DNA of 64,000 bases from a bacterium (GTDB lineage: Bacteria; Auribacterota; Tritonobacteria; UBA1439): positions 128,730-192,729 of the forward strand of contig JAQUPF010000004.1 of NCBI GenBank assembly GCA_028716845.1, given 5' to 3'. The stretch's first letter is position 1, and every line of letters begins with the position of its first letter. The position numbers and the translations under genes are program-made. The notes below the pieces were generated by a model. The model did not search any database and was not told the DNA's origin. It was given only the letters and a program-made list of their open reading frames with translations. Below, piece by piece: positions 40,317-57,264 of the stretch.

Positions 40317-40740
40317 GATCCCGTTCGCACCCGCGATTATATCAGAAGAGGCGAGACGTTTGATTTCACACTCCGACCGTCGGCAGCTTGCTGATCGACG
40401 GGCCGGCTATCCGGCTGCCTCATGGACGTCCCGAAACAGCGGATAAGCGGAACCTGCTTCCCTGAAGGTTCAGAAACTTATGAGTCAATAGTAGAGGTCT
40501 GACCCTGATTTATTACACCTGCCGCTGCTGCACATGCAAGCCACGCTTCTCAGGTCGGGTGCAGCGTATGGTTAGATTACGCTGTTGTAGAATACTTCCT
40601 GATATAGGCTGATCTAAAATAAGCACCTAGTAAAGCACCCAAGTAAGAACTTATGCTCCAGACAAGAATACAAATAAGCATCTCAAACGAAAACTCAGGA
40701 TACCTGATTAGGATGAATATTGAATAACGGAATTATCTTG

Positions 40741-40770
40741 TTGACAAACCCACCTCCCCCAGGGTATATT
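40741..40770 (+). promoter_or_regulatory. Sigma70 promoter for the transposase (TTGACA, 18-bp spacer, TATATT)
   Basis: TTGACA is at 40741-40746 and TATATT at 40765-40770. The GGAGGTGG RBS is at 40781-40788, before the ATG at 40794. Confidence 0.6.
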
Positions 40771-40793
40771 AGTACCAGAAAATGGAGGTGGCT

Positions 40794-41690: not shown

Positions 41691-41711
41691 TTTATAAAGA
41701 AGCATCTTACA

Positions 41712-42647
41712 ATGATAAGGCAAGAATACTTATTCAATATGAGCAATGCCATACGCCAGAAATTAGGCAAGTACCAGATTTTTAATATAGATGCTTTTCT
41801 CTGGCTATCGAATGCAAAACCCAATTCTATTCATGCGGTCGTCACTGATCCCCCCTATGGGTTGGTGGAATATACAGCGAAACAACTCGAAAAGAAAAAG
41901 AACGGGAATGGCGGAGTCTGGAGAATCCCTCCATCGTTCGATGGTTGCCAACGCAGCCCCTTGCCGCGCTTCACTATCCTTAATGGGAATGACAAAGAAG
42001 CATTGAGGTCATTTTTCGATAAGTTAGCGCGCGAGCTTTTACGTGTCCTAGTCCCGGGCGCCCATGTATTCATCGCCACAAACCCACTTGTTTCTTATCT
42101 GGTTTATGAGCCGTTCATCTCCAATGGATTCGAGAAGCGAGGGGAGGTTATTCGAGTGGTTCAAACCCTAAGAGGCGGCGACCGCCCTAAAAACGCGCAT
42201 CAGGAATTCCCTGACATATCTGTAATGCCAAGGTCGTGTTGGGAGCCGTGGGGTCTATTTAGAAAGCCATGCGAGGGTAGAGTGCAGGATAACCTGCGCA
42301 AATGGCGGACTGGAGGATTGCGCCGCGTTTCAGATACCGAACCTTTCAAGGATTTGATTTATTCGCCGCCCGCACGCGGAATAGAACGTGAAATTGCCCC
42401 GCACCCATCATTAAAACCGCAGCATTATCTTAGGCAGATTGTCAGGGCAGCGCTGCCTCTTGGCAGCGGAATCATTCTCGACCCATTCATGGGGTCAGGG
42501 TCTACCATTGCTGCCGCAGTGGCGTGCGGTCTTGAAAGTATAGGGCTGGAAGTTAATAATGAGTTCTTTGGAATTGCTGAAAGGGCCATTCCGAAACTCG
42601 CCATTTATAATCCTTCCGGAGACAATAATAATGGTCCGGAATACTGA
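41712..42647 (+). CDS. Beta-class DNA methyltransferase (N6-adenine or N4-cytosine)
   Basis: Motif IV DPPY (VVTDPPYG) precedes motif I FMGSGSTIAAA, a circularly permuted beta-group arrangement. Confidence 0.8.
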   Translation: MIRQEYLFNMSNAIRQKLGKYQIFNIDAFLWLSNAKPNSIHAVVTDPPYGLVEYTAKQLEKKKNGNGGVWRIPPSFDGCQRSPLPRFTILNGNDKEALRSFFDKLARELLRVLVPGAHVFIATNPLVSYLVYEPFISNGFEKRGEVIRVVQTLRGGDRPKNAHQEFPDISVMPRSCWEPWGLFRKPCEGRVQDNLRKWRTGGLRRVSDTEPFKDLIYSPPARGIEREIAPHPSLKPQHYLRQIVRAALPLGSGIILDPFMGSGSTIAAAVACGLESIGLEVNNEFFGIAERAIPKLAIYNPSGDNNNGPEY

Positions 42648-43239
42648 CTTTAATAATTCTGTCCCCTTGCCTCCGGGGCTCGCCATTGCTTCAATAAGGA
42701 AGGCGATAGAATACGTGGAAAGGGAATTGGCTGACTTAGCAGAACTCTATTTTGAGCAAGCGAATGTATTCAGCGCCTTAGTTGGGATATATGCTACTAA
42801 AGCACTTGATGCAAACAGTGTGTATGAAAAGCAGCGACATGCCGATTTGGCGCAACAGCGATTCCCTGATTTGAAAAAGCGCGGAAGCGGTGCAAAGCCA
42901 AGCCCACGAGAATCACTTGAATGCAAAGCGAGTAAAAGACCATGGGCAGTGCAATCGCATTACGACCATTCCGGTTGGTATATTATCTGGCGCTATCTTG
43001 TCGATACAACCTGTTCACTTGAGCGCAATCGCCCGGTAATTATCTGGAGAGTTGATGTTGTCTTCGTAAAGAAGAACGATTGGAAATATGAGGGTAGCAA
43101 GGCAAAAGCCGGCAGAGGTGGAAGAACCCATACTTTTGGGATGAAAAACCCGGCATCCAAGTTAAAAAATGCTGCTGTTTATAATCGCGTAGATGTAAAG
43201 ATCTCTGGAGGGAAAGCTATCCCTCGAAACGGAGGGTGA
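42631..43239 (+). CDS. Putative type II restriction endonuclease partner of the MTase
   Basis: It overlaps the MTase stop by 17 nt. It carries a PD-(D/E)xK-like PRESLECK motif. It has low GC and no other recognisable domain. Confidence 0.4.
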   Translation: MVRNTDFNNSVPLPPGLAIASIRKAIEYVERELADLAELYFEQANVFSALVGIYATKALDANSVYEKQRHADLAQQRFPDLKKRGSGAKPSPRESLECKASKRPWAVQSHYDHSGWYIIWRYLVDTTCSLERNRPVIIWRVDVVFVKKNDWKYEGSKAKAGRGGRTHTFGMKNPASKLKNAAVYNRVDVKISGGKAIPRNGG

Positions 43240-43399
43240 TACAGGAGGATAAGATGGCCCATGAAAAAAGAGAAGGGAAATCACGCCGCCTAAAACCCAT
43301 TTCTCTTCATCCTCTTCCAGTCCAAGATGCCATATCGGCTTTCATTGCCGTTGATCCGAAGAAGATTGAAGAGAGGATGAAACGGGAAAAGAAGCAGGA

Positions 43400-44377
43400 T
43401 TAGATTGCTGGCAGATTATCAGACATAGGTTTTTGAACATCGGCTACTGGAGCCATTGCTTTTAACTTCTCCGAGATTATCCTTTCTCGTTCCATTCTAA
43501 AAGAATCTTGATTGATAACTTCAAGAATTTTTGAAACTGGCACCACAATAGCTATCCCCATATTCAACCGCTCTTCGAGAAGCGCATTATCGGACGTGCT
43601 TGCATCTTCTGATAATTTCGATTCCCAGTGACCGTGCATAAGACCCATCCAATAAAATAGTCTCTCGGCACCCGTTCTAAAAGATTTCCCTATAACGCGA
43701 CTAGCGCCGGTATACAGGAATACTGGTGATCCACTCAGCCCACCAATTGATCTGGCTTCCACCAAATAAGCGTCGATAGGCCCGAGGTCGTCCGTATGTA
43801 CCCGCTCATCTGGCATAAGTGCTATATTCCCAACTCTGACAATGGGGAGATTCTTTTGACGACCATAATGACTTGAAAATAGCCCGGTTAAAAATACCTC
43901 GTCTCCAACTCCAATCCCTTCCGATTTAATTACCTTATCGGTCATAACCATCTCTAGGGGGATAGACATATAGTCGAACCGATCAATCGGGAGCATCAAT
44001 GACAATACTGCTACATCCACAGATTTATCGTTGGGATGGAACATCCAATTTGCTAATGGAGTTGAAACGTATGCGCTTGATCCGGCAGTAGTATTCACCC
44101 TCAACCACACCTGCCCATCCGTGGCATGCTTCTTGACATGTTCTATGACGTGCCGCGCTGTAACAATGTAGGCGAAAAAAATAGAGTTATCTGTTGGGAT
44201 GGAAACCGCAACGAAAAATACAGTACCGGCTAAAGCATATCCATCGCCTACTTTAAAGCAGGCGAATGCCACGCATTTTCGTACCGTGTCCGGAACTTGC
44301 ATGGGATTACGCTCCTCTTCGGCAACGTAATACTGAGGGCATCCCCCCAAACGATAATCTACCATAAGCCTGTTCAT
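43400..44377 (-). CDS. Trypsin-like (S1/chymotrypsin-fold) serine protease
   Basis: The His motif is TARHV and the Ser motif is GGLSGSPVF (GDSGGP-like). GC is about 45%. Confidence 0.65.
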   Translation of the reverse strand: MNRLMVDYRLGGCPQYYVAEEERNPMQVPDTVRKCVAFACFKVGDGYALAGTVFFVAVSIPTDNSIFFAYIVTARHVIEHVKKHATDGQVWLRVNTTAGSSAYVSTPLANWMFHPNDKSVDVAVLSLMLPIDRFDYMSIPLEMVMTDKVIKSEGIGVGDEVFLTGLFSSHYGRQKNLPIVRVGNIALMPDERVHTDDLGPIDAYLVEARSIGGLSGSPVFLYTGASRVIGKSFRTGAERLFYWMGLMHGHWESKLSEDASTSDNALLEERLNMGIAIVVPVSKILEVINQDSFRMERERIISEKLKAMAPVADVQKPMSDNLPAI

Positions 44378-44413
44378 TGTCGTGCTATAATTCCCTATGA
44401 AAACATGGGTTTG

Positions 44414-44698
44414 TTAAGCGGATAATTCCGTTGAATAATATAGCCCTGTACTAAGTACTAAATAGTTCCAAAACGATTTCCTAAGATATGGCTGTCCCAA
44501 ATAGCTAGCCAAACAACTGCCTAAAGCAAAGCATAATGGAAATACTATTAGAAAGATGATCCCGAGCAAAGATTCTGGAGATCTACCAGTTTTCACTACT
44601 ATCGGTCTAAAGATAACTACTTCAATAATTGCGTACAAACTGAGAGAGACAGAAATACCGATAATCAAATACAAGATCAATAAGCATAGCTTCTTCAT
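44414..44698 (-). CDS. Small membrane protein
   Basis: It has 3 predicted TM helices, low GC, and a Lys-Lys N-terminus. Confidence 0.4.
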   Translation of the reverse strand: MKKLCLLILYLIIGISVSLSLYAIIEVVIFRPIVVKTGRSPESLLGIIFLIVFPLCFALGSCLASYLGQPYLRKSFWNYLVLSTGLYYSTELSA

Positions 44699-44784
44699 GA
44701 TTCAATGTAATCTAACGTTCAGGCCGAGACGCGTTTTTATGCGCCAGCATAAATACGTAGTCTCCAGCCTCTGGTTCGACCCTC

Positions 44785-45291
44785 TTATATCAGTCTTGTG
44801 ATCAGAACGATTGCCAAAGCTCCGAGTGCAGCAAGATACGTTTTGGGGGGTAAGCGAAAGCGCATGCCCCACGCGATGCTGATGTATGCCAGATTGAACA
44901 GGACGAGCAGAGCATCGAAGAGCGTACGAAGTGCCTCTGCGAAGAAGCTGTTGACGTCGTCCGGAATGGCACGCAGCAGTGCCGTGAAGCCAAGAACCAT
45001 GAACGCCGCTGCTACTTGGAAGTAGAAGAACTCCTGAGTGCTCAGTCGTGGCTCGGTCCACGCACGGCCCTTCCGAACGAAGTGTCGCCACATCAGAACG
45101 AGGATGAGCCCCCAGAGACATAGTATCAGCCAAGGGGCGAATCGTCCCGCATTGCTGTCTTCGCCGAAGGCAAACAGGATTATGGCAACAAGGGCTGCGA
45201 CCGGAAACACGAGCATGCCGCCACCGACGACGAGGTAGATCGCCATACTTGCTATCGAGTTTGTCTGCCATGTTGTGCGTGCTCGAGTCAT
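44785..45291 (-). CDS. Membrane protein
   Basis: It has 4-5 predicted TM helices. The start is trimmed to MTRARTTWQT. Confidence 0.4.
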   Translation of the reverse strand: MTRARTTWQTNSIASMAIYLVVGGGMLVFPVAALVAIILFAFGEDSNAGRFAPWLILCLWGLILVLMWRHFVRKGRAWTEPRLSTQEFFYFQVAAAFMVLGFTALLRAIPDDVNSFFAEALRTLFDALLVLFNLAYISIAWGMRFRLPPKTYLAALGALAIVLITRLI

Positions 45292-45449
45292 CTTCTCACG
45301 AGGTCGAACGATTACTTGGGTTCGAATTCCTTTTCCGCGAGTGATGATCACAGCAAATGTCTTCCCATGGAAAATATGTTGCGACGGACAATATGAATAC
45401 CTGAAATCAAGTTATATCCAGGAAGAGGCTCCAATCAACGACAGCCTCT

Positions 45450-45690
45450 CTAGCGTAATGGGCGGCCCATGCGAGGCGTCTCGATGGGACCATACGGTTC
45501 GCCCCGCTGCTTCTCCAGCTTCGCCACGAGATCCCGAACGGCCTGATTCACCACGTCCGAGCGGGTCACCCGATCCCACCACGCCACCCGGCGAATCGCC
45601 TCAGCAACGTACGCGGCGAGTTCGATTGTCTGCCGGTACGTCTCGCCCTTGGCCCTCCGCGGGCGGGTCCATCCCCCAGGTTGTCTGACG
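45450..45690 (-). pseudogene. Ribbon-helix-helix (CopG/Arc-like) protein remnant, no intact start
   Basis: The minus-strand translation ...GETYRQTIELAAYVAEAIRRVAWWDRVTRSDVVNQAVRDLVAKLEKQRGEPY has an RHH beta-strand plus two helices. The upstream reading frame is broken. The stretch has high GC, unlike its flanks. Confidence 0.3.
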
Positions 45691-46134
45691 TGTCGCCGTA
45701 TCTTTTCAAGGCATGGCCGGACCGCCGGGGACTTTCCCAGGGAGCGCCTTGAGCGTCATCGAGTGATCCATTGAAATGTCAGCGGTCATACCTGTTATCC
45801 CGTCGGCACCAAGATGGATTGTAAACGACAAATGTACTAATAGTCCAAGGGAAATCAGGGAATTCGCGTTAGTAGAGTATCGGTAATCCGCTATCCTTTC
45901 AGTTTACCGCGATCGGCAGGATCCAGGGGGTCTGCTTGCTTTTGGCTATGTGCTTTCGGATGGTACCATTGAAAATGGGTTGTTACAATCCGAATCGCAC
46001 TCAACGCAAATAGGAAATAGCCGGCGGCAGACCTCTACTATTGACTAGACCATGGTGGAAGATTCAGAAACCCATTAGTCAATTGTAGAGGTCTGATTCT
46101 GATTTTACACAGAAGGGAAAAGGCACGAGCGAGA

Positions 46135-46268
46135 GGATGGAGAAACGGCTGCAGACCGGTGAGGGACTATTCAGCGAGCAATGGCCGTGGCCTGACCTCG
46201 GAATAACCCAATTACGGCGAGCATCCCAAGTCGGCGCTTTCTATTGTTAAGAATAAAGATGTGACCGC
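46135..46268. repeat. Roughly 135-bp dispersed repeat, copy 2
   Basis: It is the paralog of 38787-38925 and sits immediately 5' of the IstB fragment. Confidence 0.5.
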
Positions 46269-46443
46269 AAGCACCATGATGACCTCCAACCGCCCCATCG
46301 AGGAATGGGAGAAGCTCATCGGCGATGTCCCCTCGGCAACGGCCATCCTGGACCGCTTCCTGCACCACGCCGAGATTATCCCGATCAAGGGCATGAGTTA
46401 CCGATTGAAAGATCGGGCTTGCATATCTATCAAGGAAGGATGA
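46261..46443 (+). pseudogene. IS21-family IstB helper ATPase, C-terminal fragment
   Basis: TSNRPIEEWEKLIGDVPSATAILDRFLHHAEIIPIKGMSYRLKDR is the IstB C-terminal consensus. No istA or N-terminal part is present. Confidence 0.7.
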
Positions 46444-46530
46444 TTATCTGATCACTTACTGGCTGATTTTTAAGTAACCGCGAGTAGCTGATTATGATGT
46501 GACCGGTGACATTAAGAGGAGATGACCAAT

Positions 46531-46941
46531 ATGGACATATCCGCAGATGAGATCAAGGAGGGATTGGTCCTGTTCCTCGACCCGGAGATTTTAATCGCTA
46601 AAGGCGCAACGTGCTCAGTGCCAGATAATTATAGGGCGAGAAAGAGTCGGCCCTTTTTATGCATAGATGCAGATTCATCTTCTGGTACCTGTATTCCACT
46701 CTATAGCTCTGATGCTAAGGGCCGAGGACCAATTGAGGAAGATAGCAAAGAGGGAGATGATATATGGATAGTTAGTGACAGCTACTATGACACTAGGCAA
46801 CAATGGAATGCGGTGGCCCATGAAACAATCATAGCTGCTGCTAGGGGAGATCAATCAACTACTGATCTAAGAAACACCGTTACTCCTGAGTGCCTTCGAG
46901 ACATTAAAGAAGATTACAGAATCAGCAATCGCCTGGCATAG
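46531..46941 (+). CDS. Hypothetical protein (low GC)
   Basis: The AGGAG RBS is followed by an ORF of about 136 aa with no recognisable domains. Confidence 0.35.
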   Translation: MDISADEIKEGLVLFLDPEILIAKGATCSVPDNYRARKSRPFLCIDADSSSGTCIPLYSSDAKGRGPIEEDSKEGDDIWIVSDSYYDTRQQWNAVAHETIIAAARGDQSTTDLRNTVTPECLRDIKEDYRISNRLA

Positions 46942-47055
46942 CCAAACCGCCTCAGCATCCAGCAACCCGTTCAGCGTCTCCTCAAACGATCTCCGCACCA
47001 CCCTGTCCAGATGCGCCCGGATCTCACCCTCATCAACCTCAGAAACGCTCTTCAA
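46920..47055 (-). pseudogene. IS256-family transposase N-terminal fragment
   Basis: LDRVVRRSFEETLNGLLDAEAVWLCQA matches the IS256 N-terminal consensus (VEETLNALLDAEADxLC). It is truncated by the low-GC insert and has high GC. Confidence 0.5.
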
Positions 47056-47216
47056 CCCGGCCCCTGTTTCGCTATCCTCTTCACGAGCAGTGCCTCCTCG
47101 CCTGTCGGGCGTGTTGGCTCTTCCACAAACACCGACTAGCAGGAAGCCTGCTCCTTGTAAAGTGCGAATAATAGCGTACTTTGACGTGATTAATCGGGGC
47201 CTGACAATAATACCCT

Positions 47217-48269
47217 CTATTTGTCCTTTTCTGTAGGGTCTGGTGCTTTGTCTCCCGTATTATCTTCTTCCCGTTTCTTTCCTTTATCATCATATCCTAT
47301 ATCGCGATAAAGGTTGTCAAGCGGATGATCTAAACGTCCCAAGATATCTTCGACCTTGCTTGGATAGCCAAAATACTTGCTCCAATCATAAATTCCAGCA
47401 GGCGCTATTAAACTAGGCTGGCTTAATTTATCGAGGGTCTTTTGTATATTTTCTTTCATCCCTTGATCCATCTTAAGTACAGCAATATTTGCCCTCAGAT
47501 TGCCTATCATTCTATTATTTTCCTCCAGCATATTCCGAGATTCGGCACTTCTTTTTTCCAGTTCATTTTTTAGAATTCTAATAAATGATCCCATTTCATC
47601 TGCACTTCCAGCTAATCTGTTAAATATAACCAAGAATTGCTCTAATAATGGTTCACTGATACTATATGGATAACGTATCTGATGATCTATTTCGCTCCAA
47701 CCTTCTTCAAATATTGTTCTCACCTGTATCTCCGCAATGATTTCCGATCCTTTATCGGGGCTCACAGTAATTGTGTAATGGATTGACCTATATCCATAAG
47801 GATGCTCATTAATTTCGCATCCCTTTTCTTTGAATGCTCTAATGATATTTTCTGAATCACCAGATCTCACATTCGCCACTGTTATTTCTTTTAAATCCCA
47901 AGTATTTACTACATAATTGTGAATGTCTTTCCAGTCATTCTTAAAAAGGTGCAATGCCCTGACACCGATCAAATCGAATATTACTTGCCTATAGTTATCC
48001 CGATCAATCGATAAGTTATTGTCTGCAATTTGTTTCCTAATTATCTTGGCTATTAAATGTTCTGGATCCTTTATTCGGAATTTAACTGAATGAACTTGAG
48101 GTATAGCTCTCAAGTTATCAGCAATCGTGTCAGCTTGAGGCTCAAGCAATTCCATATAACTTAGATAGTTCTTTTCTATCTCTTCAAGTTCAGTCCATTT
48201 GAAACCTGTACTTTTGAAATCTTCCAAAGTTATACTATATTTCTTTAAAAACATATTTTGTGCTAACAT
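47217..48269 (-). CDS. RelA/SpoT-domain protein (small alarmone synthetase-like, candidate toxSAS or CapRel-type fused toxin-antitoxin)
   Basis: The PF04607 motifs are VKFRIKDPEHLIAKIIRK, DLIGVRA, GYRSIHYT and EIQVRTIFEEGWSEIDH. A roughly 130-aa C-terminal extension follows. GC is about 40%. Confidence 0.7.
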   Translation of the reverse strand: MLAQNMFLKKYSITLEDFKSTGFKWTELEEIEKNYLSYMELLEPQADTIADNLRAIPQVHSVKFRIKDPEHLIAKIIRKQIADNNLSIDRDNYRQVIFDLIGVRALHLFKNDWKDIHNYVVNTWDLKEITVANVRSGDSENIIRAFKEKGCEINEHPYGYRSIHYTITVSPDKGSEIIAEIQVRTIFEEGWSEIDHQIRYPYSISEPLLEQFLVIFNRLAGSADEMGSFIRILKNELEKRSAESRNMLEENNRMIGNLRANIAVLKMDQGMKENIQKTLDKLSQPSLIAPAGIYDWSKYFGYPSKVEDILGRLDHPLDNLYRDIGYDDKGKKREEDNTGDKAPDPTEKDK

Positions 48270-48397
48270 TTTGCACCTCGCCTATCCTTCTCTCATAGTG
48301 TCTGGTTATATCCCGTTCCTCCGTGGCTGGTTATGACCGGCCGATGACACTTTATCAGTGCCGACATCATCCCCGAAACATAATGCACCCTCCAAGG

Positions 48398-49219
48398 TTA
48401 TTCCACTGGCTCTTCAAGCCCTGTGTTTCTCTTCCAGCGTTCAATAGAAGCACGATTGATCGGAGCGGTAATCATATCTGTTATATCTTTTTCTACACGT
48501 GCAAATCCAGCCTTAGACAGACGCTCTCTTACTACCATCTCTTTGCCACGAGATAATCCCTTTTGATAATGACCTGCAAGGTAATGTGCAAGCCATAGCC
48601 CCCCCTGTGAATCTCCTGCTAATGAGCTATCACTCCAGATTATACACATGTCTGCGTTAGTGAATCGCAACCTCGATTTAAATAACTCAGCTTCATCGCG
48701 ATTCATTCTCCTCGCTGCTTGTAAAATACCATTGAGCTGCCCGCTCAACCTATGAACACTGTCTATGAATATTCTCCTCGTTGGTTTGGGCATTGTCTTT
48801 TGATCCAACACAATCGAGAGACCATCTACGAAATCCTTTGCTATGGCGGATACGGTTGCCTGAGCTATTGCCTGCCCCATGCAGAATTGCCATACCCAGT
48901 TCCTTAATCCTATTCCCTCTTCTGTTAGATAGTGTCTATTAGCCCCAGTAATCAACCTTGTGGCTCTTGCCATCGTATTCATTTTCGAAAGCTTACTTTG
49001 TATTTTATTGCCGTATCCTCTATCTGGATATATGTAAGAAATGTGCGGAAAAGCGTTAAGCTCCTTGATTTTCTTAACAAGCCAATCAACATGTCCATTC
49101 GGTTTATCTATCGTAGGGGGATCGCCTAAGATTGCTACAGTGGCAGCAACAAAAGGGGGGTCGCCATCATTCATCGGCATCGTGCCTGCTTCGTCACCAT
49201 AAATCCGAAGAATAGCCAT
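48398..49219 (-). CDS. DUF3800-family protein
   Basis: The N-terminus MAILRIYGDEAG matches the DUF3800 (y)IDESG start. It has low GC and is adjacent to the RelA/SpoT gene. Confidence 0.5.
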   Translation of the reverse strand: MAILRIYGDEAGTMPMNDGDPPFVAATVAILGDPPTIDKPNGHVDWLVKKIKELNAFPHISYIYPDRGYGNKIQSKLSKMNTMARATRLITGANRHYLTEEGIGLRNWVWQFCMGQAIAQATVSAIAKDFVDGLSIVLDQKTMPKPTRRIFIDSVHRLSGQLNGILQAARRMNRDEAELFKSRLRFTNADMCIIWSDSSLAGDSQGGLWLAHYLAGHYQKGLSRGKEMVVRERLSKAGFARVEKDITDMITAPINRASIERWKRNTGLEEPVE

Positions 49220-49467
49220 GTCTCAACCTGCCTTTCTACTGGTGACAATCGTGATGGCATTATTCCCATAATAGCACTGCTGGCAGCCCTGCATGATGTA
49301 TATGCCCTATTCATTGGATATTCTACCGGATCATGGTGGAGAGAATAAGCAAAGCATTTTAAAGCATTTTGCGTTTTGTCCATTCTCCAATTCAATTTCC
49401 CGCAGCCTGGTTGCAGCCAGGAACACCACCTTGTTTCCGTCAGGAATACTGGCAGCTTCGCATATGT

Positions 49468-52400
49468 TCACTGGGATATATTCAGGCCGAGTTGTTCACC
49501 CTCCTGTTCTTTCGCCTTCGGAGCCTCGCGCATTTCATCCGGGACGGGCGGCATTTCATCGGATCGGAAGCATTCGCCCTCAATGACAGCATTAAGGAGA
49601 TTAGCTTGCTCAGGATAGCATTCGACTGTTGCCTCCAGCACCCAGAGCAGTTCAAGGAGTTCGGTTGTAAACTGACTGGTCCATTTCTCAGGGCGGATAT
49701 CATCGAGGGGGGATGATTTCTTCCCGGCCCCTTTCTTCATGCGATATTTAAGCCATGATCGTACAACCTTGAGTCCCGAAACTTCATACTCGTAAACCTC
49801 GGGTGTGACAGGTAAGAACTTGCCATCGCCTACATGCAGCGTTCGGTTATTTTCTTCATAATGGAACGACTCAGGATAACCAGCAGAGCTGCCGGGGACA
49901 GCCTTCACGCACTTAGCCTTACCGGGTGGGATCTGCCCCAAGCGCTTGCCTTTAGGCACAAAGCGCTCACCGTAAGTATGCAACCACAGTAGTCGCGCCC
50001 CGATATCGGAAATCTTATCGAACAGCATGCCATCCTTTGTAATCGGCACTCTCAGCTCTCGCGTTTCTAGTTCCTTTTGAAATCGCGCGGTAAAGGCTGG
50101 CTGCGCCAAGACTCCATAAAGATAAGCTGCGAAATCCTCCGGCGCTACTTTCCGTATGTACACCTTGCCGAGCTGTTCGAGCAAGCCGGGGAGGATATTG
50201 GATTGCGTTGCGTTTCTTTTCCTGTACAGGGGTACAATATCTCTCCCTCCCCTTCCGGAAAAATAGTGACGATCGGGGATTTCAGCTGCTGATGTTAATG
50301 CTGGACCTTGCCCAAGTTCCAATGTCATCGAACTTGCAAGATAAAGCTGCTTTGGGCCATGAGTGCGCCAGAGATCGGGACGGAGGTAGTCTCCGATACG
50401 ATTGTCCGCAAACATCCATTGTCTATCGAACGAACGATATGCGTAGCGTTCAATCTGCGGCGGGGAGACATTACGTGGTAAATGATTAAGAGGACTGCCA
50501 TCTCCCTGCCGGAAATACAGAAGTGGGTACCTCAATGAAATCTTCCGATCTCGTGTCTCCTTAAAGGCATTAGCCCTATCGTCTGCGACAAGCAACGCTC
50601 GCCACCTTGATTTCAAGGTTTCTATCTCATGGCAAATTGGCCAAGTTCGTTTCATCTCGCAACCAGTATGTTGCCACGGCATAATATCAGTTAAAAGAGG
50701 CCAGTTGAAATAATGGCCCTTCCCCATAGGGCGAAATGGAGCATGCCAATCGTTAAGGCAGGCCTTCCACTCTACTTTGGAATAATCATCGATGGCTTCA
50801 AGCGCAGCAAGCTTGGTCTTGCTATCGCCCTCGATGCGGGAGTAATGGACTCGGGCGGGTTTGTCTTTATTCGCCTTCTTCGCGCGGACAGCGACGGCTA
50901 TGGCGACCGGGGTCTGAATGGCGAAAACGTTTTCGCTTTTTCGCGTACCGCGACCTTCTCCGCCAAGATCAAGAATCCATATCTCTTCACAAATTCGTCG
51001 CATATGTTCCCGCATCCCACAAAAGGCATCGCCATCCAGGTAACTTGATGCGCTGATAAAACTGACCACACCAGGGCATTGCGATTTCTCGTGTTCGAAG
51101 ACCTTCCAGAGCGCCCAGCGCCAGAAATAGACATAGAGATTATAGAGATTCTTGAGGTGGACGCCATGCCCGGCAGCTATGGCAGGATTAATGAAGTCGC
51201 GAAGAATAGAGCGTTTTTCTCTTTCTGATATCCTCGCCTTTGCGCTCGTGATTTTACGTATTTGACCCCTTTTGTCCCGCTTGCGGTCGTCGGGTAAAGG
51301 ATCTCCAAATCGAACCCAACCTCCATAGCGGGCCAGACTATCCTCTCGAGTAATATCCACGGCCTCGTGACGGTCGTAAGGAGGATTGCCCAAGCAGACA
51401 ATGACGGGAACGCTGTTCTTTACTTTGAGCGCCTTTGCGTGTTGCTCCGCGATGGGTCGCAGAAAGAAGGGCAATTGTGGAGGCTCGGCATGGGGGCTTT
51501 CAAGTGTGTCGGTCAGGAATATGTGGGTTCCGTCGGCGGGAAGTGATGCACCACGGTCACTCAGTGCACGGCTGACGCGCAACTCGGTCACAGCGTATGG
51601 ACCGACCATAATTTCGAATCCGAAGATGTTCTTTGCAAGCTCAGTTGCCTGTCCCTTGACGGCCCCTTTGCCCTGCTCAGACTTGACCCGCTCCAGGGCA
51701 TGTTCAATGACACCGAGCAGATAGGTGCCTGTCCCGGCGGCGGGGTCAAGCGTGATGACGCTGGGATCGGCAAAACCCAACGGCTTGTTGAGGCGGTTGA
51801 CAAGAAGATCGTCTATCAAGCGCACCTGGCAGTGAACGACTTCAATCGGTGTGTAGTATGCTCCAGCGTCCTTGCGTAGTTTGGGATCATAAACGGAGAG
51901 GAAATGTTCATAGAAATACAACCATGGGTCCTCAGGACCGATAAATGCGGCAGTGGGAACGGCGGCGATAACGCGGAGAAGTAGATCAAGAGAGGTTGTA
52001 ATTTCGGCGCGTGCGCGATTATCGGTCAGAACTTGGAGTGCACGGGCAAGGAGATTATGTTGCGCCGCGAGCGCCTTTTCAGCGCTGGCGAGTGTTAATG
52101 GTTCGGCTCCTTCACTACGCCCCAGGAGTAAGCCAAAGGTGACGGTTTGGGCATAGGCGTCAGCAAATTGCTCATCAGGCGCATCGGGAAATAGTAATTG
52201 CCGCCAGTCCCTGGCGAGTTCAACCAGCGGCGATGACGGGTCTTTGAGCGCATCTATCACATCATCGCGCAACATCCGGCAGAGTGGTGCGAGCAGAGCT
52301 GCGAACGCCTTGAGGTCGATCTTCCCCTTCCGATCTCTCGGGATGAGCGGTTGCCACAAGAAAAAGTCGCGCAGAAGGTGTTCAAGCGCAGCCGCATTTT

Positions 52401-52851
52401 GTGTGGAAACAGCCTTCTTGCCGTCCGCAGCCACATTGCCGGAGAGTCGCACAATCCTACCAGCAAGTTCACCATTGCGATAAAGCGCCCATTCATTGCC
52501 ATCGGTATAGAGAATATTGGGAATGGCCGAAAAGCGCTTGAATTGTTCGCGGTTATGTCCTTTGAATCGCGTTGCAAACGCGCCGACTCCGGGAGCTTTA
52601 AGTTCGACGTACCCGACGAGCAGCTTCTTGACGTGAACGGCGTAATCGGGACGGCCAAGTCGGTTAGGAAGGCGCGTTTCCCCGATACAAACAATATTCC
52701 ATCCAAGGGCTTTAGCTACGGCTGCCTTAAAGTTCTCGAAAGGGCCCCGCAACTGATCCTCGGGCTCACCGGTAGTGAGCTGTGTCATCTTGGCCTTCAC
52801 GTTGGTCGCGAAGGTTTCCAAGGATTCGCGTATCGAGATGATCTTGCTCAT
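49468..52851 (-). CDS. Type IIG restriction-modification enzyme (MmeI-like: PD-ExK nuclease plus gamma-class N6-adenine MTase plus TRD)
   Basis: The N-terminal PD...ELK is RPDYAVHVKKLLVGYVELKAPG. MTase motif I is LDPAAGTGTYL and motif IV is GNPPYD. There are no helicase motifs. It is 1127-1143 aa depending on start (M at 52899 or 52851). Confidence 0.75.
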   Translation of the reverse strand: MSKIISIRESLETFATNVKAKMTQLTTGEPEDQLRGPFENFKAAVAKALGWNIVCIGETRLPNRLGRPDYAVHVKKLLVGYVELKAPGVGAFATRFKGHNREQFKRFSAIPNILYTDGNEWALYRNGELAGRIVRLSGNVAADGKKAVSTQNAAALEHLLRDFFLWQPLIPRDRKGKIDLKAFAALLAPLCRMLRDDVIDALKDPSSPLVELARDWRQLLFPDAPDEQFADAYAQTVTFGLLLGRSEGAEPLTLASAEKALAAQHNLLARALQVLTDNRARAEITTSLDLLLRVIAAVPTAAFIGPEDPWLYFYEHFLSVYDPKLRKDAGAYYTPIEVVHCQVRLIDDLLVNRLNKPLGFADPSVITLDPAAGTGTYLLGVIEHALERVKSEQGKGAVKGQATELAKNIFGFEIMVGPYAVTELRVSRALSDRGASLPADGTHIFLTDTLESPHAEPPQLPFFLRPIAEQHAKALKVKNSVPVIVCLGNPPYDRHEAVDITREDSLARYGGWVRFGDPLPDDRKRDKRGQIRKITSAKARISEREKRSILRDFINPAIAAGHGVHLKNLYNLYVYFWRWALWKVFEHEKSQCPGVVSFISASSYLDGDAFCGMREHMRRICEEIWILDLGGEGRGTRKSENVFAIQTPVAIAVAVRAKKANKDKPARVHYSRIEGDSKTKLAALEAIDDYSKVEWKACLNDWHAPFRPMGKGHYFNWPLLTDIMPWQHTGCEMKRTWPICHEIETLKSRWRALLVADDRANAFKETRDRKISLRYPLLYFRQGDGSPLNHLPRNVSPPQIERYAYRSFDRQWMFADNRIGDYLRPDLWRTHGPKQLYLASSMTLELGQGPALTSAAEIPDRHYFSGRGGRDIVPLYRKRNATQSNILPGLLEQLGKVYIRKVAPEDFAAYLYGVLAQPAFTARFQKELETRELRVPITKDGMLFDKISDIGARLLWLHTYGERFVPKGKRLGQIPPGKAKCVKAVPGSSAGYPESFHYEENNRTLHVGDGKFLPVTPEVYEYEVSGLKVVRSWLKYRMKKGAGKKSSPLDDIRPEKWTSQFTTELLELLWVLEATVECYPEQANLLNAVIEGECFRSDEMPPVPDEMREAPKAKEQEGEQLGLNISQ

Positions 52852-52964
52852 GCCGATATTGCCTTTGGATCCTTTAGGCAATTCATATCCCGTTAACACA
52901 GAAGATTATCTGTAGAGTATAACAATGCTTCCGAAATCAGGTTCCCAGATTATCCATCGACTGA

Positions 52965-53660
52965 TTACCGTCTCATTGTATCAAGTGTAACCCAATCGCC
53001 AGGAGCCCGCTCGTATCGCCAGAATGTCCACCCGTTGCAGGTTCTTCGTTTACAGGCCGCCGCCGCAGCGAGTGAGGGAGATGTGTATACCTTCCCGTTC
53101 AAGAGAATCGTTCCATCGCGCCGAACCCGCGCCTGGATACGCTGCCCTTTGTGCTTTCCTCGAATTATGAATGGACCTGAATTATATTTCCTCAGTACAG
53201 CGTTCCGCCCCCCCGGGGCTTCTATGAGCTCCTCCCGCTTTTGCGCAACACACGTCTCGCCGAACAGCCCATCAATCCGCTCTTGAAAATCCCGTTTGAT
53301 TTGCTGGCGGAACTTCCGTTGTAAGTTTTCAGAACGGGCGAACTTCCCTTTCTGCTTGTTCCCGGGGGGCTGCACCACGCGCAGGATCAATGATTCGAGT
53401 TCCCTCAGATTGTCACTGCCGATGGTCAGATAGACGGAGAACCGATCCCAGGAGTCCCTGTGCTTGTCCCGGAGATGATGTCTTAACCGGCTGCGAAGGT
53501 TTGTTGCAAGCCCCACATAATAGAGCTTCCCACGCCGATACAACGCGTATACCCCCTGCCGGCGCCGGACATAGTGTCGGATGATATTCAGGTGCTTTTC
53601 CAATGCCTCGCGCGAGATATTCTCAAGATGCTGACACACTAGCTGAGAGTGCTTGGCCAT
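52965..53660 (-). CDS. GIY-YIG nuclease domain protein with a C-terminal DUF4357-like region
   Basis: The GIY-YIG motif is GVYALYRRGKLYYVGLATNLRSRLRHH. The C-terminus has a conserved GWTFW. The start MAKHSQL follows a GGGGGAG RBS. Confidence 0.6.
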   Translation of the reverse strand: MAKHSQLVCQHLENISREALEKHLNIIRHYVRRRQGVYALYRRGKLYYVGLATNLRSRLRHHLRDKHRDSWDRFSVYLTIGSDNLRELESLILRVVQPPGNKQKGKFARSENLQRKFRQQIKRDFQERIDGLFGETCVAQKREELIEAPGGRNAVLRKYNSGPFIIRGKHKGQRIQARVRRDGTILLNGKVYTSPSLAAAAACKRRTCNGWTFWRYERAPGDWVTLDTMRR

Positions 53661-53798
53661 TATCTCCCCCCCGCCTTCAATGCTATCCAACTCTATGATG
53701 GCTATGGATGGAGTAGTTCCCCTGTGGATTTCTCGCCATAACTTGTCCTGTGAATGTGTGCAAGTCAACCGGTCTGTGCTGCTTGCCAGCAATCTCTT

Positions 53799-55808
53799 TC
53801 AGTCAACAGCCGGACCCGCCTCCGGTGACCCCTCTCCCCCATTCTCCTCGGGAGGCATTGGGGGGGAGGCAGCCACTGTATGTGCCGCGGCAGGGAGGTG
53901 AGCCCGGGCGGCCTCAGCCGCTTCCGATTTAAGTCGCTCAGCCTTGCGACGATACTTTCTCGCCGGAGGGTAATTCGGTTTGAGTTCAAGTGCTTTATCA
54001 TAGTCGGCAATAGCCCGATCGTACTCCCCCATATCCTTGTATACATTGCCCCGATGATAATAGTAATACGCGCTATTCGGCCGCAGTGCGATGGCTTCCG
54101 TATAATCAGCGATCGCATGGGGGCTATCACCCTTTCCGTGATATGCCCTGGCCCGGTCCACATAAGCTTGAAGAAAAGTGGGATCCAGTTCGATCGCCCT
54201 GTTGAAGTCCGCGATGGCACTATCATTATCAAGCTGGTTAAGGTGCCAAGAGCCGCGACAGCGAAGCGCTTTCACGTGATTCGGATCAAGTTCAATCGCC
54301 TTGTCGAAGTCCGCAATTGCGCGTGCGCGCTCGCCAATGCGAAGGAGAACGTTGCCACGATTGTAATGAGCATCCGCATATTGTGGGTCTAATGCTATCG
54401 CCATGCTGTAATCGGCAAGAGCCTTCTCATGTTCCCGTTGTTGCACGTGACAGTATCCCCGATTCAGGAAAGAGAGCATATGGTTTGGTCGCAGTTCAAT
54501 CGCCCTGCTGTAATCCGCAATCGCCTTGTCGAAGTCCTCTCTCAGGCGGTGCGCATTGCCCCGGTTGTAATGTGCGGGGTGGCTTCTCGGATCAAGCTCG
54601 ATCGCCTTTGTGTAATCGGCGATTGCCTTGTCCCATTCACGGGCATGGCGGTGCGCAACGCCCCTGCTGTTATACGCCGGGGAGCAATGCGGATCCAGTT
54701 CGATCGCCTCATTCGCGAATGCGAGGGCCCGCGTGTGATCGCCTTTCGCGTTATAGACAAGCGCCATTCCGTTGTATGGATAGGCATAGCGGGGGAAAAG
54801 CTCGATTGCCTTTTCATAGTCCGCAAGGGCAAGATCGTATTCACCTTGCTCTTTATAGAGATTGCCTCGATTATTATAGGCATATGCGTACTTGGGGTTG
54901 AGTTCGATCGCTCGGTTATAATCGGCGAGCGCTTTGTCATACTCCCCCTTGTCCAAGTACGCATTCCCGCGATTGTTGTACACAATGGTATAATCCGCAT
55001 CCAGGTTTATCGCCGCGGTATAATCATCGATCGCCCGATCATTATCCCCCTTCCCCCTGTATGCGCAGCCGCGATCCTTGTATGCCGATGCTCGGGAGGG
55101 ATCAAGCTCTATCAATGAACCATAATCATCGATGGCCTTGTCATACTCGCGCATATCCAAATACACGCCGGCACGGGCACGATAGGGAGTTCTATCCCCG
55201 GGCCTCAGTTCAATCGCCCTGCTGAAATCATCAACCGCACACGAGAAATTGCGCATATTCCTGTATGCCCTGCCTCGACTGATGTAAGCTCTTGGATAAT
55301 CCGGCCTCAAGCCGATGACCGTGCTGTAATCCGCAATTTCCGATTCATAATCCTTTATCCTGCGATATGAAGCGGCACGACTCATGTACGCGCCGATGAA
55401 ATCAGGCTTCAGTGTGATTGAGCGAGAATAATCGTTGATCGCAGATTGATAATATTTCCCGGTCTGAAACAGATTGCCACGAATGGAGTATAGACCAGGT
55501 TCGGCCGGGTTCAGATTGATCGCGGTGTTGAGATCCGCGAGTGCGCGGTCGTAATCACCCTCGGCCATATAAATGAACGCACGAACGCAATATAACCGGG
55601 CATCCTTCGGCTCAAGGGCAATCGCCTTATTGCACATGTCTATCGCACCGGCATGATCACCGTTTAAATGGCAGGCGAAGCTCTGTTTCATGCAGGCTTC
55701 GATCGCGGAGGAATCGCGCCGCGGAATACGGCAGGATGTCACCAGAAGCAGAAGCATCAGGATGGGAAGAACGAGGAGCCACCTTCTGCTACATCCCATT
55801 GCATTCAT
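53799..55808 (-). CDS. TPR-repeat lipoprotein
   Basis: The signal and lipobox LLLLLVTSC are followed by more than 15 tandem 34-aa TPR units (AxxYxxRGxxYxxxGxYDxAIxDY). Confidence 0.8.
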   Translation of the reverse strand: MNAMGCSRRWLLVLPILMLLLLVTSCRIPRRDSSAIEACMKQSFACHLNGDHAGAIDMCNKAIALEPKDARLYCVRAFIYMAEGDYDRALADLNTAINLNPAEPGLYSIRGNLFQTGKYYQSAINDYSRSITLKPDFIGAYMSRAASYRRIKDYESEIADYSTVIGLRPDYPRAYISRGRAYRNMRNFSCAVDDFSRAIELRPGDRTPYRARAGVYLDMREYDKAIDDYGSLIELDPSRASAYKDRGCAYRGKGDNDRAIDDYTAAINLDADYTIVYNNRGNAYLDKGEYDKALADYNRAIELNPKYAYAYNNRGNLYKEQGEYDLALADYEKAIELFPRYAYPYNGMALVYNAKGDHTRALAFANEAIELDPHCSPAYNSRGVAHRHAREWDKAIADYTKAIELDPRSHPAHYNRGNAHRLREDFDKAIADYSRAIELRPNHMLSFLNRGYCHVQQREHEKALADYSMAIALDPQYADAHYNRGNVLLRIGERARAIADFDKAIELDPNHVKALRCRGSWHLNQLDNDSAIADFNRAIELDPTFLQAYVDRARAYHGKGDSPHAIADYTEAIALRPNSAYYYYHRGNVYKDMGEYDRAIADYDKALELKPNYPPARKYRRKAERLKSEAAEAARAHLPAAAHTVAASPPMPPEENGGEGSPEAGPAVD

Positions 55809-55823
55809 TGAATGGATGGAACC

Positions 55824-55948
55824 CGTAGACGTTGTATATATCGCGCTCGGGTCGAACAGGATAGAAACTTATTCGCCCCCGGGGGCTCTGGGGGCGAATA
55901 AGTCCGCATCATCCTGCGGCCGGGGCAGTTGCATAACACGTCTTCTAC
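55824..55948. repeat. PRE copy K, complete about 125-bp palindromic element (type copy)
   Basis: GTAGACGTTGTATATATCGCGCTCGGGTCGAACAGGATAGAAACTTATTCGCCCCCgggggctctGGGGGCGAATAAGTCCGCATCATCCTGCGGCCGGGGCAGTTGCATAACACGTCTTCTAC. The stop codon of the downstream minus-strand gene is the terminal CTA. Confidence 0.85.
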
Positions 55949-57264
55949 CGGGCCGGCGGCTCCTCCAGCCGCACCAGCAGCCGTTGCTGGGTTTGGCCGT
56001 CCGCGAAGTGGAGCAGGACGGGCACGGTGTCCCCGGTGAGATTGCCCACTCCGCATTCCATGACCGGCCGGGTCGTGCCGGACACCGTCCACGCCGCGCG
56101 CTGCGACGCCTTGTCGGCCATGCCCTCGATGGTCCGCGTGTCACCGGTGGACGCGTCGTGGATCATGCCGCCGATGATGCCCTCCCTGCTGATGTCGAGT
56201 TGCAGGAACTGCGACGGCTCGGGGCCGGACGGCTGGCCGTCCTGCGTCAGGGCGAACACGCCAAGCGGCATCCACTCGACCGTGTCGGGGGCGACCTCCG
56301 GAGCGCTGCCGGCGATCTGTTCCGCCTGCTCCGCGTACTCATCCGCCGACGCGATGACCTGATCACCGTAATAGACCGAATTGTCCTGGTAGTAGACGTT
56401 CTCGCCGTACGAGTAGTACACGGGCTCCCGCCACCCGTAGCCGACCCAGCCGACCATCATGGGCCACGTGGCCCAACCGTAGGGATGCGTGACGCGCCAG
56501 GAGGCCCAGTTGGGGTGATCCGACCAGAAGTCGAGCCGGGGATAGTTGTCCCTGACCTGATCGCGGATTTCGTCGCGCCGCTCGACGCGATCGCCCTGCA
56601 GCTTCTGGCGGTTCTCGATCCGGTCCGGTCGCCTGGCGGAGATGTCGCCGCGCCGGTCCGGGCGGCTCTCGATGCGATCGGCGCGGGCTTCAGCCGGCCG
56701 GGGACGGCCCTCGATCCTCCCCGCGGCGGGACGGCCCTCTGCGCCGCGCCCCTGGAGGAACTCGGCCGCGGCGCCGCCGGCCGCAGGGCCCCACGTCCGG
56801 TCCCCGGTCCTCGAACCGGCTGACGGCCTCGGCATGTCCAGGAAATGCTGCAGATCGGCGCTCGAGGGCCGGGCCCCGGCGCCGGGCCGGGCCCCCGCGC
56901 CCGGGAAGGCGCCTCCACCGGGATGGGTGCCCGCGCCCGGGAAGGCGCCTCCACCGGGACGGGTGCCCGCGCCCGGGAAGGCGCCTCCGCCGGGACGGGT
57001 GCCGTGTGACGGAGCGCGGCTGATCGAGGGTGAACGGCCCACCGACGCGCTCGGGCGGCTCCCTCCGCCGCCATGCATGCTTCTCCCTCCCCCGTACGAT
57101 CCGCCTCCGACGCGGCCGCCGCCGCCGCGCGCTCCTCCGCCGCCGCGCCCCCCTCCGCCGCGTCCCCCGCCGCCGCGTCCCCCGCCGCCGCGGGCCGGCA
57201 CGTCACCGACCGTCAACAGGAGGACCGCCGCCACGACCATGCCGACGCGAACAACCCTGTTCAT
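55945..57264 (-). CDS. Secreted glycine-rich low-complexity protein with internal tandem repeats
   Basis: The signal peptide is MNRVVRVGMVVAAVLLLTVG. It has (GGGGR)x6 and (TRPGGGAFPGAG)x3 repeats and a globular W/Y-rich C-terminus. Confidence 0.6.
   Translation of the reverse strand: MNRVVRVGMVVAAVLLLTVGDVPARGGGGRGGGGRGGGGRGGGGARGGGGRVGGGSYGGGRSMHGGGGSRPSASVGRSPSISRAPSHGTRPGGGAFPGAGTRPGGGAFPGAGTHPGGGAFPGAGARPGAGARPSSADLQHFLDMPRPSAGSRTGDRTWGPAAGGAAAEFLQGRGAEGRPAAGRIEGRPRPAEARADRIESRPDRRGDISARRPDRIENRQKLQGDRVERRDEIRDQVRDNYPRLDFWSDHPNWASWRVTHPYGWATWPMMVGWVGYGWREPVYYSYGENVYYQDNSVYYGDQVIASADEYAEQAEQIAGSAPEVAPDTVEWMPLGVFALTQDGQPSGPEPSQFLQLDISREGIIGGMIHDASTGDTRTIEGMADKASQRAAWTVSGTTRPVMECGVGNLTGDTVPVLLHFADGQTQQRLLVRLEEPPAR
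56898..57005. repeat. 36-bp tandem repeat x3 (coding) inside the Gly-rich gene
   Basis: GCCCGGGAAGGCGCCTCCACCGGGA(T/C)GGGTGCCCGC is repeated three times. A 15-bp GGGGR-coding repeat array follows at about 57098-57190. Confidence 0.7.

Follow-up and report, generated by a model that had tools for sequence, protein, structure and literature searches.

Gene content of the block

The window analysed was a whole 64,000-nucleotide (nt) stretch of contig JAQUPF010000004.1 (assembly GCA_028716845.1, Auribacterota), in which four open reading frames (ORFs) followed one another on the minus strand at 47217-48269, 48398-49219, 49468-52899 and 52965-53792 (longest-ORF calls; 350, 273, 1143 and 275 amino acids (aa), respectively). 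They encoded a RelA/SpoT-domain protein, identified as a small alarmone synthetase (SAS), a protein with a predicted RNase HII fold (P2), a type IIG restriction-modification (R-M) enzyme and a GIY-YIG/RAMA nuclease. It was judged reasonably likely that the block consists of four unrelated, separately mobile single-gene modules, with the SAS acting as proposed below, and not of a multi-gene system. In the public gene call for identical DNA (proteins MDD5556559.1 and MDD5556560.1), the type IIG gene began at 52851 and encoded 1127 aa, and the GIY-YIG gene began at 53660 and encoded 231 aa; most of the top 120 homologues of the latter were also 231 aa long. The features of the block were as follows.

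47217-48269, minus strand: SAS, orphan small alarmone synthetase, 350 aa (Pfam RelA_SpoT, motifs, AlphaFold2 (AF2) model, Foldseek)
48270-48397, minus strand: spacer between P2 and SAS, 128 nt, no recognisable element (Rfam, fold, attC, terminator and promoter scans)
48398-49219, minus strand: P2, stand-alone protein of predicted RNase HII fold, 273 aa (AF2 model and family alignment)
49220-49467, minus strand: spacer between type IIG gene and P2, 248 nt, no recognisable element (Rfam, fold and attC scans)
49468-52851 (longest ORF to 52899), minus strand: type IIG R-M enzyme, single chain, 1127 aa (PADLOC, Pfam)
52965-53660 (longest ORF to 53792), minus strand: nuclease with GIY-YIG and RAMA domains, 231 aa (Pfam, PADLOC PDC-S14)

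The initial annotation, made from the sequence alone, had described four consecutive minus-strand genes of low GC content, and this description was confirmed. The GC content was 0.357 for the SAS gene, 0.442 for P2, 0.527 for the type IIG gene and 0.546 for the GIY-YIG/RAMA gene, against 0.646-0.672 in the host flanks on either side. Neither spacer had an Rfam match (DUF3800 RNA motifs included for the type IIG/P2 spacer) or an attC site, and both folded no better than shuffled sequence (fold z-score of -0.50 for P2/SAS and +0.32 for type IIG/P2). There were zero Rfam matches to structured RNA across 44-56 kb at E up to 1. No attC site was found in the intergenic regions of the window, the sole candidate falling within the P2 coding sequence. 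Promoter and terminator scans of the block returned background-level counts and were thus uninformative on operon structure.

Domains and structure of the small alarmone synthetase

The Pfam RelA_SpoT match covered residues 65-203 of the SAS (E = 1.2e-19), followed by a C-terminal extension at residues ~205-350, in agreement with the synthetase domain and extension first annotated. The five synthetase motifs were all present (FRIKDPEH at 64, DLIGVR at 99, YGYRSIH at 158, EIQVRT at 180 and DHQIRY at 195), and their cores (RxKD, DxxGxR, GYRSxH, ExQxRT and HxxY) were invariant across 31 diverse homologues. The domain was therefore not a dead one, a case that the initial annotation had considered, and by its residues the protein is catalytically competent.

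The layout comprised a conserved N-terminal helical region (1-55) and the SYNTH domain (~59-203); a long helix at 207-264 and a short one at 269-283 came next, and a tail (289-350) ended the protein. The predicted local distance difference test score (pLDDT) of the AF2 model was greater than 90 at residues 1-190 and less than 50 at residues 289-350, which were predicted to be disordered. The C-terminal 60 residues were charged and not conserved; homologues were hypervariable and unalignable after residue ~285, some of them ending in a CxxC...CxxC zinc ribbon. With the tail at pLDDT < 50 beyond the helices, this protein lacks a folded C-terminal domain like that of CapRel.

Searches of the Protein Data Bank (PDB) by sequence (phmmer and hmmsearch profile) returned only RelP, RelQ and related SAS enzymes (profile E = 4e-14), with no match to CapRel at E up to 1 by either method. 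By Foldseek, RelP/RelQ came first (3e-10) and CapRel 41st (1.4e-5). The CapRel-like fused architecture that had been suggested at first was not borne out, as the extension consisted of a long helix, a short helix and a disordered tail, and RelP/RelQ were nearer both by sequence and by fold.

Spread, neighbours and mobility of the SAS family

Homologues in the SAS family numbered more than 3500, and a relative was encoded by at least 457 of the stretches matched in GTDB species genomes. To our knowledge, no member of the family has been characterised. Homologues from unrelated phyla were all ~45-54% identical, with no synteny. Among 80 family loci fetched from GTDB species genomes there was no conserved neighbour, neighbour sizes, strands and gaps being heterogeneous, and no small adjacent ORF of toxin-antitoxin type. 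The earlier remark that no cognate antitoxin ORF was evident beside the RelA/SpoT gene was correct as an observation, and membership in the classic toxSAS toxin-antitoxin group was not supported, since no neighbour of any kind was conserved at these loci.

Compared with the distal flanks, the SAS gene was poorer in GC by more than 5 points in 34 of 73 loci, and in none of the 73 was it richer by more than 5 points. Deficits reached 20-27 points while near flanks matched far flanks, and the same pattern was seen in the window (0.357 against 0.65-0.67). These islets indicate repeated recent insertions of one gene. Members of the family were also found in 127 plasmid records and four phage records (two of these four being close relatives). 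On Bacillus anthracis pXO1 (L119, 4995-6044) the homologue lay beside xerS, and on the 5.1-kb Paracoccus plasmid pMARC1 (NC_025023.1; L118, 2242-3411) it lay in an AT-rich "plasmid islet"; in sister plasmids of pMARC1 the same islet holds a retron-type reverse transcriptase (RT) or an SMC-like ATPase instead (PMC3832669). Taken together, the identity across phyla, the low-GC islets and the carriage by plasmids and phages point to the SAS as mobile one-gene cargo, and this mobile behaviour is circumstantial support for the idea of a conflict or defence gene. A role in defence or growth arrest is plausible.

Some further observations were made on single loci of the family. Low-GC islets were seen, for example, at L046, L059, L062, L041, L017 and L081 (loci numbered L007-L086). 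The phage homologues included one in Ralstonia phage YO102_1 (49360-50070) and one in a Vibrio prophage (L120, 6001-6597; unannotated, partial match), and the pMARC1, pXO1, Ralstonia and Vibrio homologues were 38-47% identical to the SAS. In a metagenome-assembled genome of the Polyangiales, an attC-like site (L041:7329-7419) lay 81 nt past the stop codon of the SAS homologue, so the SAS gene may also be an integron cassette in at least this one genome.

At six Fusobacteriaceae loci (L066, L073, L082, L084 and related ones), a gene of ~337 aa without Pfam match lay immediately upstream of the SAS homologue (e.g., L073:4957-5970), overlapping it by ~16-23 nt or lying within ~20 nt of it, depending on the start called. 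Among the 80 loci, an overlapping upstream gene occurred in this subset only, and the two genes may form a lineage-specific two-gene system.

Comparison of the SAS with characterised systems

The SAS had the SYNTH fold and all synthetase motifs in common with RelP/RelQ (PDB 6EWZ, 6FGJ, 5DEC and 2BE3). Identity was only ~20%, however, and the score with the NCBIfam YjbM model (GTPPhKinYjbM) was 36 bits against a cut-off of 320 bits. Relative to RelP/RelQ, the SAS family adds a conserved N-terminal region of 55 aa, a helix of ~60 residues and a variable tail, and it occurs as a mobile gene in many phyla, whereas RelP/RelQ are core genes of Firmicutes.

CapRel (PDB 7ZTB) resembles the SAS in being a single gene of ~350 aa with a RelA/SpoT domain, in its occurrence on mobile DNA and in its G-loop tyrosine (Y160 in the SAS), but its folded C-terminal antitoxin/sensor domain is missing in the SAS. 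The toxSAS modules (FaRel, FaRel2, PhRel, PhRel2 and bicistronic CapRel) have intact SYNTH catalytic residues in common with the SAS, but the conserved adjacent antitoxin gene that marks them, within an operon of two or three genes, was not found at the 80 loci.

In PANGU type I, the GRel-class SAS Pag1B forms a tetramer that is not toxic alone and makes pppGpp once it is activated by a YejK-like nucleoid-associated protein, Pag1A, whose gene is adjacent (bioRxiv 10.64898/2026.04.06.716658). Pag1B/GRel is similar to the SAS in size and in the succession of SYNTH domain, alpha-helical linker and C-terminal region, but the C-terminal region of Pag1B is a folded acidic domain and that of the SAS is charged and predicted to be disordered. 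No YejK-like nucleoid protein was found among the neighbours in the window (Pfam), nor among 128 immediate and 10 further neighbours of the SAS family, so the likeness to PANGU is a resemblance of design and not membership. DsRel (SAS-TPR, Tde-SAS) is a SAS with C-terminal TPR, a regulatory extension (PMC10434055); the SAS of the window was not assigned to it because Pfam found no TPR and the model has a single long helix. The taxa that carry the SAS family overlap with those given for fpRel and gRel by Atkinson 2011, an overlap that serves as a lead only.

Family, fold and active site of P2

P2 had no match in Pfam (E up to 10), NCBIfam or PADLOC. A word-indexed search returned 23 homologues, and a profile search of 1.84 billion representatives returned 162 clusters, nearly all of them stand-alone proteins of ~270 aa. 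The AF2 model built with the family alignment had a pLDDT of 91.9. In that alignment, D9, E10, D139 and H212 were each at least 90% conserved, within the near-invariant motifs G-D9-E10-x-G (first strand), L-D139-Q-K (end of the fourth core strand) and G-L-x-L-A-H212-x-L-A (late helix). A C-terminal W...TGL.EP motif was invariant in the family, and there was an extra helical insert.

As modelled, the arrangement (adjacent D-E, then D, with the last residue on a helix) is that of a type 2 RNase H. Because QxxD is replaced by L-A-H-x-L-A, the fourth catalytic residue is predicted to be His, as in the DEDH of PIWI. P2 would act as a stand-alone, metal-dependent nuclease of RNase HII fold with a D-E...D...H active site. 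It probably cleaves a nucleic acid, and the substrate is possibly an RNA-containing duplex, by analogy with type 2 RNases H.

The initial annotation had labelled the second gene DUF3800, a label that the lack of a Pfam match did not sustain. DUF3800 (PF12686) is described as having an RNase H2-like fold with a DE motif on the N-terminal side and QxxD on the C-terminal side (PMC7736814, PMC10910872); its domains occur within defence systems of several genes, among them retron type VII and Cas12a2-associated loci (PMC7736814, PMC10910872), and its genes are often linked to non-coding RNA motifs (PMC5737381). P2 shared the D-E in the first strand, the RNase H2-like fold and the defence contexts, but not QxxD, since the aligned helix has His at the Asp position and lacks Gln; the helical insert and the W...TGL.EP motif were further differences from DUF3800. 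Among 10 remote members of the P2 family scanned, four gave sub-threshold DUF3800 matches (12-14 bits against a cut-off of 21). With the DE motif and fold shared, QxxD absent and the remote members scoring so low, P2 was placed outside DUF3800, in a separate small family distantly related to it.

Genomic contexts of P2

Neighbours varied from locus to locus among the 27 metagenomic and five other P2 loci fetched. They were often of defence type (unrelated type IIG enzymes in three other P2 loci, and TIR, FRG, Fic, PDC-S11 and DpdB-like genes and a superfamily 1 (SF1) helicase fused to a DUF559 nuclease); others were DUF4238, DUF2971, TPR and DUF4268 proteins and metabolic genes. Homologues at L090, L094, L096 and L099/L103 were flanked by canonical attC sites (RYYYAAC...GTTRRRY, paired arms) and sat in same-strand arrays of unrelated small genes. 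Locus L096 had three strict attC sites upstream of the P2 homologue and a related repeat copy after the gene. The sites were located as follows.

L096: attC sites at 404-479, 1595-1670 and 2128-2203
L099: attC site at 1449-1524
L090: attC site at 1426-1522
L094: attC site at 3079-3135

These flanks identify the P2 homologues concerned as integron cassette genes, which argues that P2 acts alone. Beyond the attC repeats and the start region, no flank sequence was conserved across P2 loci, and P2 had no match in the plasmid collection. P2 moves by itself, in integron cassettes or as an island gene. The family is of interest as a compact, unnamed family with an RNase HII fold and a D-E-D-H signature, found in integron cassettes and defence islands; it ties DUF3800-type nucleases to integron cassette arrays and is a cheap candidate for single-gene defence screens.

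Type IIG enzyme

The third gene had been annotated as an MmeI-like single-chain R-M enzyme, and it proved to be one. It matched the PADLOC model PDLC03631 REase_MTase_IIG over its full length (residues 25-1137; 1179.6 bits) and, in Pfam, N6_Mtase and Type_ISP_C (738-1084; E = 3e-74). The motifs were RPD83...GYVELK96 (PD-(D/E)xK-type; residues 83-101), DPAAGTG at 385 and NPPY at 505. The protein thus consisted of an N-terminal nuclease motif, a gamma-class N6-adenine methyltransferase and a C-terminal specificity domain of Type_ISP_C.

MmeI-class type IIG enzymes have the same single chain, PD-(D/E)xK-type motif, NPPY N6-adenine methyltransferase and target-recognition domain, but in the present enzyme the specificity domain is of the Type_ISP_C kind. 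True type ISP enzymes have a helicase-like ATPase between nuclease and methyltransferase; the Pfam scan of the 1127-aa protein found no ATPase or helicase domain, and for this reason the enzyme was classified as type IIG rather than type ISP. One chain would methylate host adenines at the recognition site and cut incoming unmethylated DNA, a mode of action given by its family membership.

GIY-YIG/RAMA protein

At 22.1 bits the GIY-YIG domain of the fourth protein fell just short of the Pfam cut-off (22.6 bits), but its GVY, YYVG, R and E motifs could be seen. The RAMA domain was clear (E = 4.2e-14; 52.8 bits against a cut-off of 35.2 bits) and the DUF4357 match was weak. The protein matched the PADLOC single-gene candidate PDC-S14 (E = 1.1e-16), and its initial description as a GIY-YIG/DUF4357-like nuclease was upheld with RAMA as the clearer of the two accessory matches. 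Its top 120 homologues were 52-71% identical (all but one at least 59%) and mostly 229-236 aa long.

The domain pair and the length are those of PDC-S14, and the gene likewise stands alone, in defence neighbourhoods that vary. The neighbours at four homologue loci were, respectively, a type I HsdR; a DUF1016 nuclease with ParE/Phd; an RNase H with Fic; and a PLD nuclease. As these differed, the GIY-YIG/RAMA gene was treated as an independent module. It is a candidate defence gene, with no specific tie found to the adjacent type IIG enzyme; RAMA would bind DNA and GIY-YIG would cut it. A pair of type IIG and GIY-YIG/RAMA genes was considered and rejected, as none of the four homologue loci examined adjoined a type IIG enzyme.

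Evidence for the independence of the four genes

A P2 homologue lay within 6 kb of the SAS gene in 0 of the 80 SAS loci (P2 profile search), and a SAS gene was present in 0 of ~25 other P2 loci (SAS profile; only the copy of the window matched). The functional RelA/SpoT and DUF3800 pair that had been proposed initially, searched for as a conserved SAS-P2 pair from both sides, was rejected; a lack of co-occurrence elsewhere was among the refuting outcomes that the initial annotation had set. Adjacency within one island is no evidence for a functional pair. The independence of the genes of the block is supported by these co-occurrence counts, by the varied neighbours of the GIY-YIG/RAMA gene and by the distinct GC content of each gene.

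Interpretation of the SAS and its alternatives

In the mechanism proposed, the SAS would use ATP as pyrophosphate donor and a purine nucleotide as acceptor; the product would most likely be (pp)pGpp and possibly (pp)pApp. The best structural matches, RelP/RelQ, make (pp)pGpp, and this was counted toward a (pp)pGpp product. The long C-terminal helix would keep the enzyme in an oligomer of low activity until some cue switched it on; growth of the carrier would then be slowed or arrested, with an abortive-infection or stress-arrest effect. Pag1B/GRel was counted in favour of this proposal as a precedent for a non-toxic, tetrameric, helix-linked SAS defence effector, and so were the HamB, AriA-like or SIR2 genes that adjoin some family members. 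The SAS would need no neighbouring partner and would spread as a one-gene, low-GC insert.

Several points weigh against reading the block in this way. The immediate neighbours of the SAS family were mostly housekeeping genes (peptidase M3, two-component systems, aminotransferases and transporters), with which a plain accessory role in stress signalling fits equally well, and defence-type neighbours (e.g., HamB, AriA-like and SIR2) were a minority. The low GC content of the SAS gene may come in part from a Lys-, Glu- and Asn-rich composition. According to Kurata et al., tRNA-targeting toxSAS have no sequence signature, so that sequence cannot separate (pp)pGpp synthesis from tRNA pyrophosphorylation. 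The catalytic tetrad of P2 was taken from alignment and secondary structure and not from measured geometry, and the attC scan and the gene calls were home-made heuristics.

The most probable alternative, though an unlikely one, was that the SAS is an ordinary accessory stress-signalling synthetase, similar to RelP/RelQ or Tde-SAS, that was acquired horizontally, has no role in phage defence and is beside defence genes here only by position. Its nearest solved relatives are housekeeping (pp)pGpp synthetases, the neighbours elsewhere agree with it, and regulatory C-terminal extensions are known, such as the TPR repeats of DsRel/Tde-SAS. Its occurrence as a low-GC islet of one gene (34 of 73 genomes), the identity of ~50% over unrelated phyla without synteny, and the carriage by plasmids and phages, including the plasmid islet slot shared with a retron RT or SMC-like ATPase, argued against it.

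A more far-reaching version of the single-gene proposal was entertained tentatively, as a rather unlikely one. In it, the SAS would represent a large and so far overlooked class of partner-less, self-mobile immune or growth-arrest genes in which a coiled-coil oligomer silences SYNTH and the hypervariable tail, or in some homologues a zinc ribbon, senses infection, and P2 would be a new cassette-borne defence nuclease acting as a single gene. If so, this would be a third mode of control for toxic SAS, beside separate antitoxins (toxSAS toxin-antitoxin systems and PANGU) and the folded sensor of CapRel.

It was doubtful that the SAS is a fused toxin-antitoxin of the CapRel type, in which the C-terminal domain would cover the active site and free it on binding of a phage protein; tRNA 3' ends would then be pyrophosphorylated and translation would stop. 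The SAS is a single, partner-less, mobile gene, here in a defence island; it is hypervariable beyond residue ~285, with a zinc ribbon in some homologues, and the lack of a sequence signature for tRNA-targeting toxSAS keeps tRNA among its possible substrates. Against this stood the model, in which the long helix was followed by a tail of low pLDDT and no globular C-terminal domain, the absence of CapRel from the sequence matches and its low Foldseek rank.

A two-gene system of SAS and P2, as toxin and antitoxin or sensor and effector with one controlling the other, was highly improbable: the genes are adjacent on the same strand, 128 nt apart with no terminator-like site between them, PANGU type I offers a toxSAS effector with an unrelated non-toxic partner, and DUF3800 domains are found in the multi-gene retron type VII and Cas12a2-associated systems, but the co-occurrence counts from both sides brought the idea close to refutation, P2 moves alone as a cassette and the SAS alone as an islet and on plasmids, and the two genes differ in GC content.

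Under the preferred reading of four independent modules, interest centres on the SAS as a widespread partner-less family with thousands of homologues, found on pXO1, on small plasmids and in phages. If it were an immune or addiction gene, the toxSAS idea would be extended to a partner-less form unlike CapRel.

Enclosing island

The four-gene block formed the right-hand part of a low-GC island of ~15 kb, with a GC content of ~0.50 between ~40.5 and 55.9 kb. The other features of the island were as follows.

40500-55900, no strand assigned: enclosing low-GC island, ~15 kb (composition profile; Pfam and PADLOC scans)
40782-41690: IS1595 transposase (Pfam/PADLOC scans)
41712-42647: N6_N4 DNA methylase, 311 aa (Pfam/PADLOC scans)
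43400-44377: PDC-S45-type trypsin-like protein, 325 aa (PADLOC PDC-S45, 4e-17)
46261-46443: C-terminal fragment of IstB (IS21 helper) (Pfam/PADLOC scans)
53799-55808: TPR protein, 669 aa, at the right edge of the island (Pfam/PADLOC scans)

The low GC content relative to the host, together with the IS1595 transposase, the methylase, the PDC-S45-type protein and the IstB fragment, supported the reading of the region as a horizontally acquired island of defence-type genes. The defence island of the initial annotation was accordingly retained, with the type IIG enzyme, the PDC-S14-type nuclease, the methylase, the PDC-S45-type protease, the IS1595 transposase and the IS21 fragment inside a low-GC island. 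As a mosaic defence island with a type IIG enzyme it is of a common, ordinary kind. The window showed neither meaningful repeats, direct or inverted, nor a tRNA gene, the latter checked for tRNA-linked integration.

Just after the IS1595 transposase, the N6_N4 methylase was followed by an overlapping ORF of 226 aa without Pfam match (41712-43239 for both); together they could form a small R-M pair of type II. The PDC-S45-type protein adjoined a small hydrophobic ORF (44414-44698), and an ORF of 188 aa in the same neighbourhood (44785-45351) had a weak match to the octameric membrane-protein family 8xMP; this region (43400-45351) may be a further defence module of the island. The IstB fragment marks a decayed insertion sequence. 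Beside it, a plus-strand ORF of 139 aa without family match (46522-46941) was convergent with the SAS gene.

At the right edge, the TPR protein consisted almost entirely of TPR repeats (14 matched stretches), with a signal-peptide-like N-terminus and a GC content of 0.535. An ORF of 439 aa and high GC content at 55945-57264, with long repeats (Gly/Arg-rich and Pro/Gly/Ala) in its N-terminal part, is probably host-encoded. Just outside the island on the other side, an ORF of 339 aa (37737-38756) had a marginal match to the AbiEii nucleotidyltransferase toxin (22.4 bits against a cut-off of 22.5).

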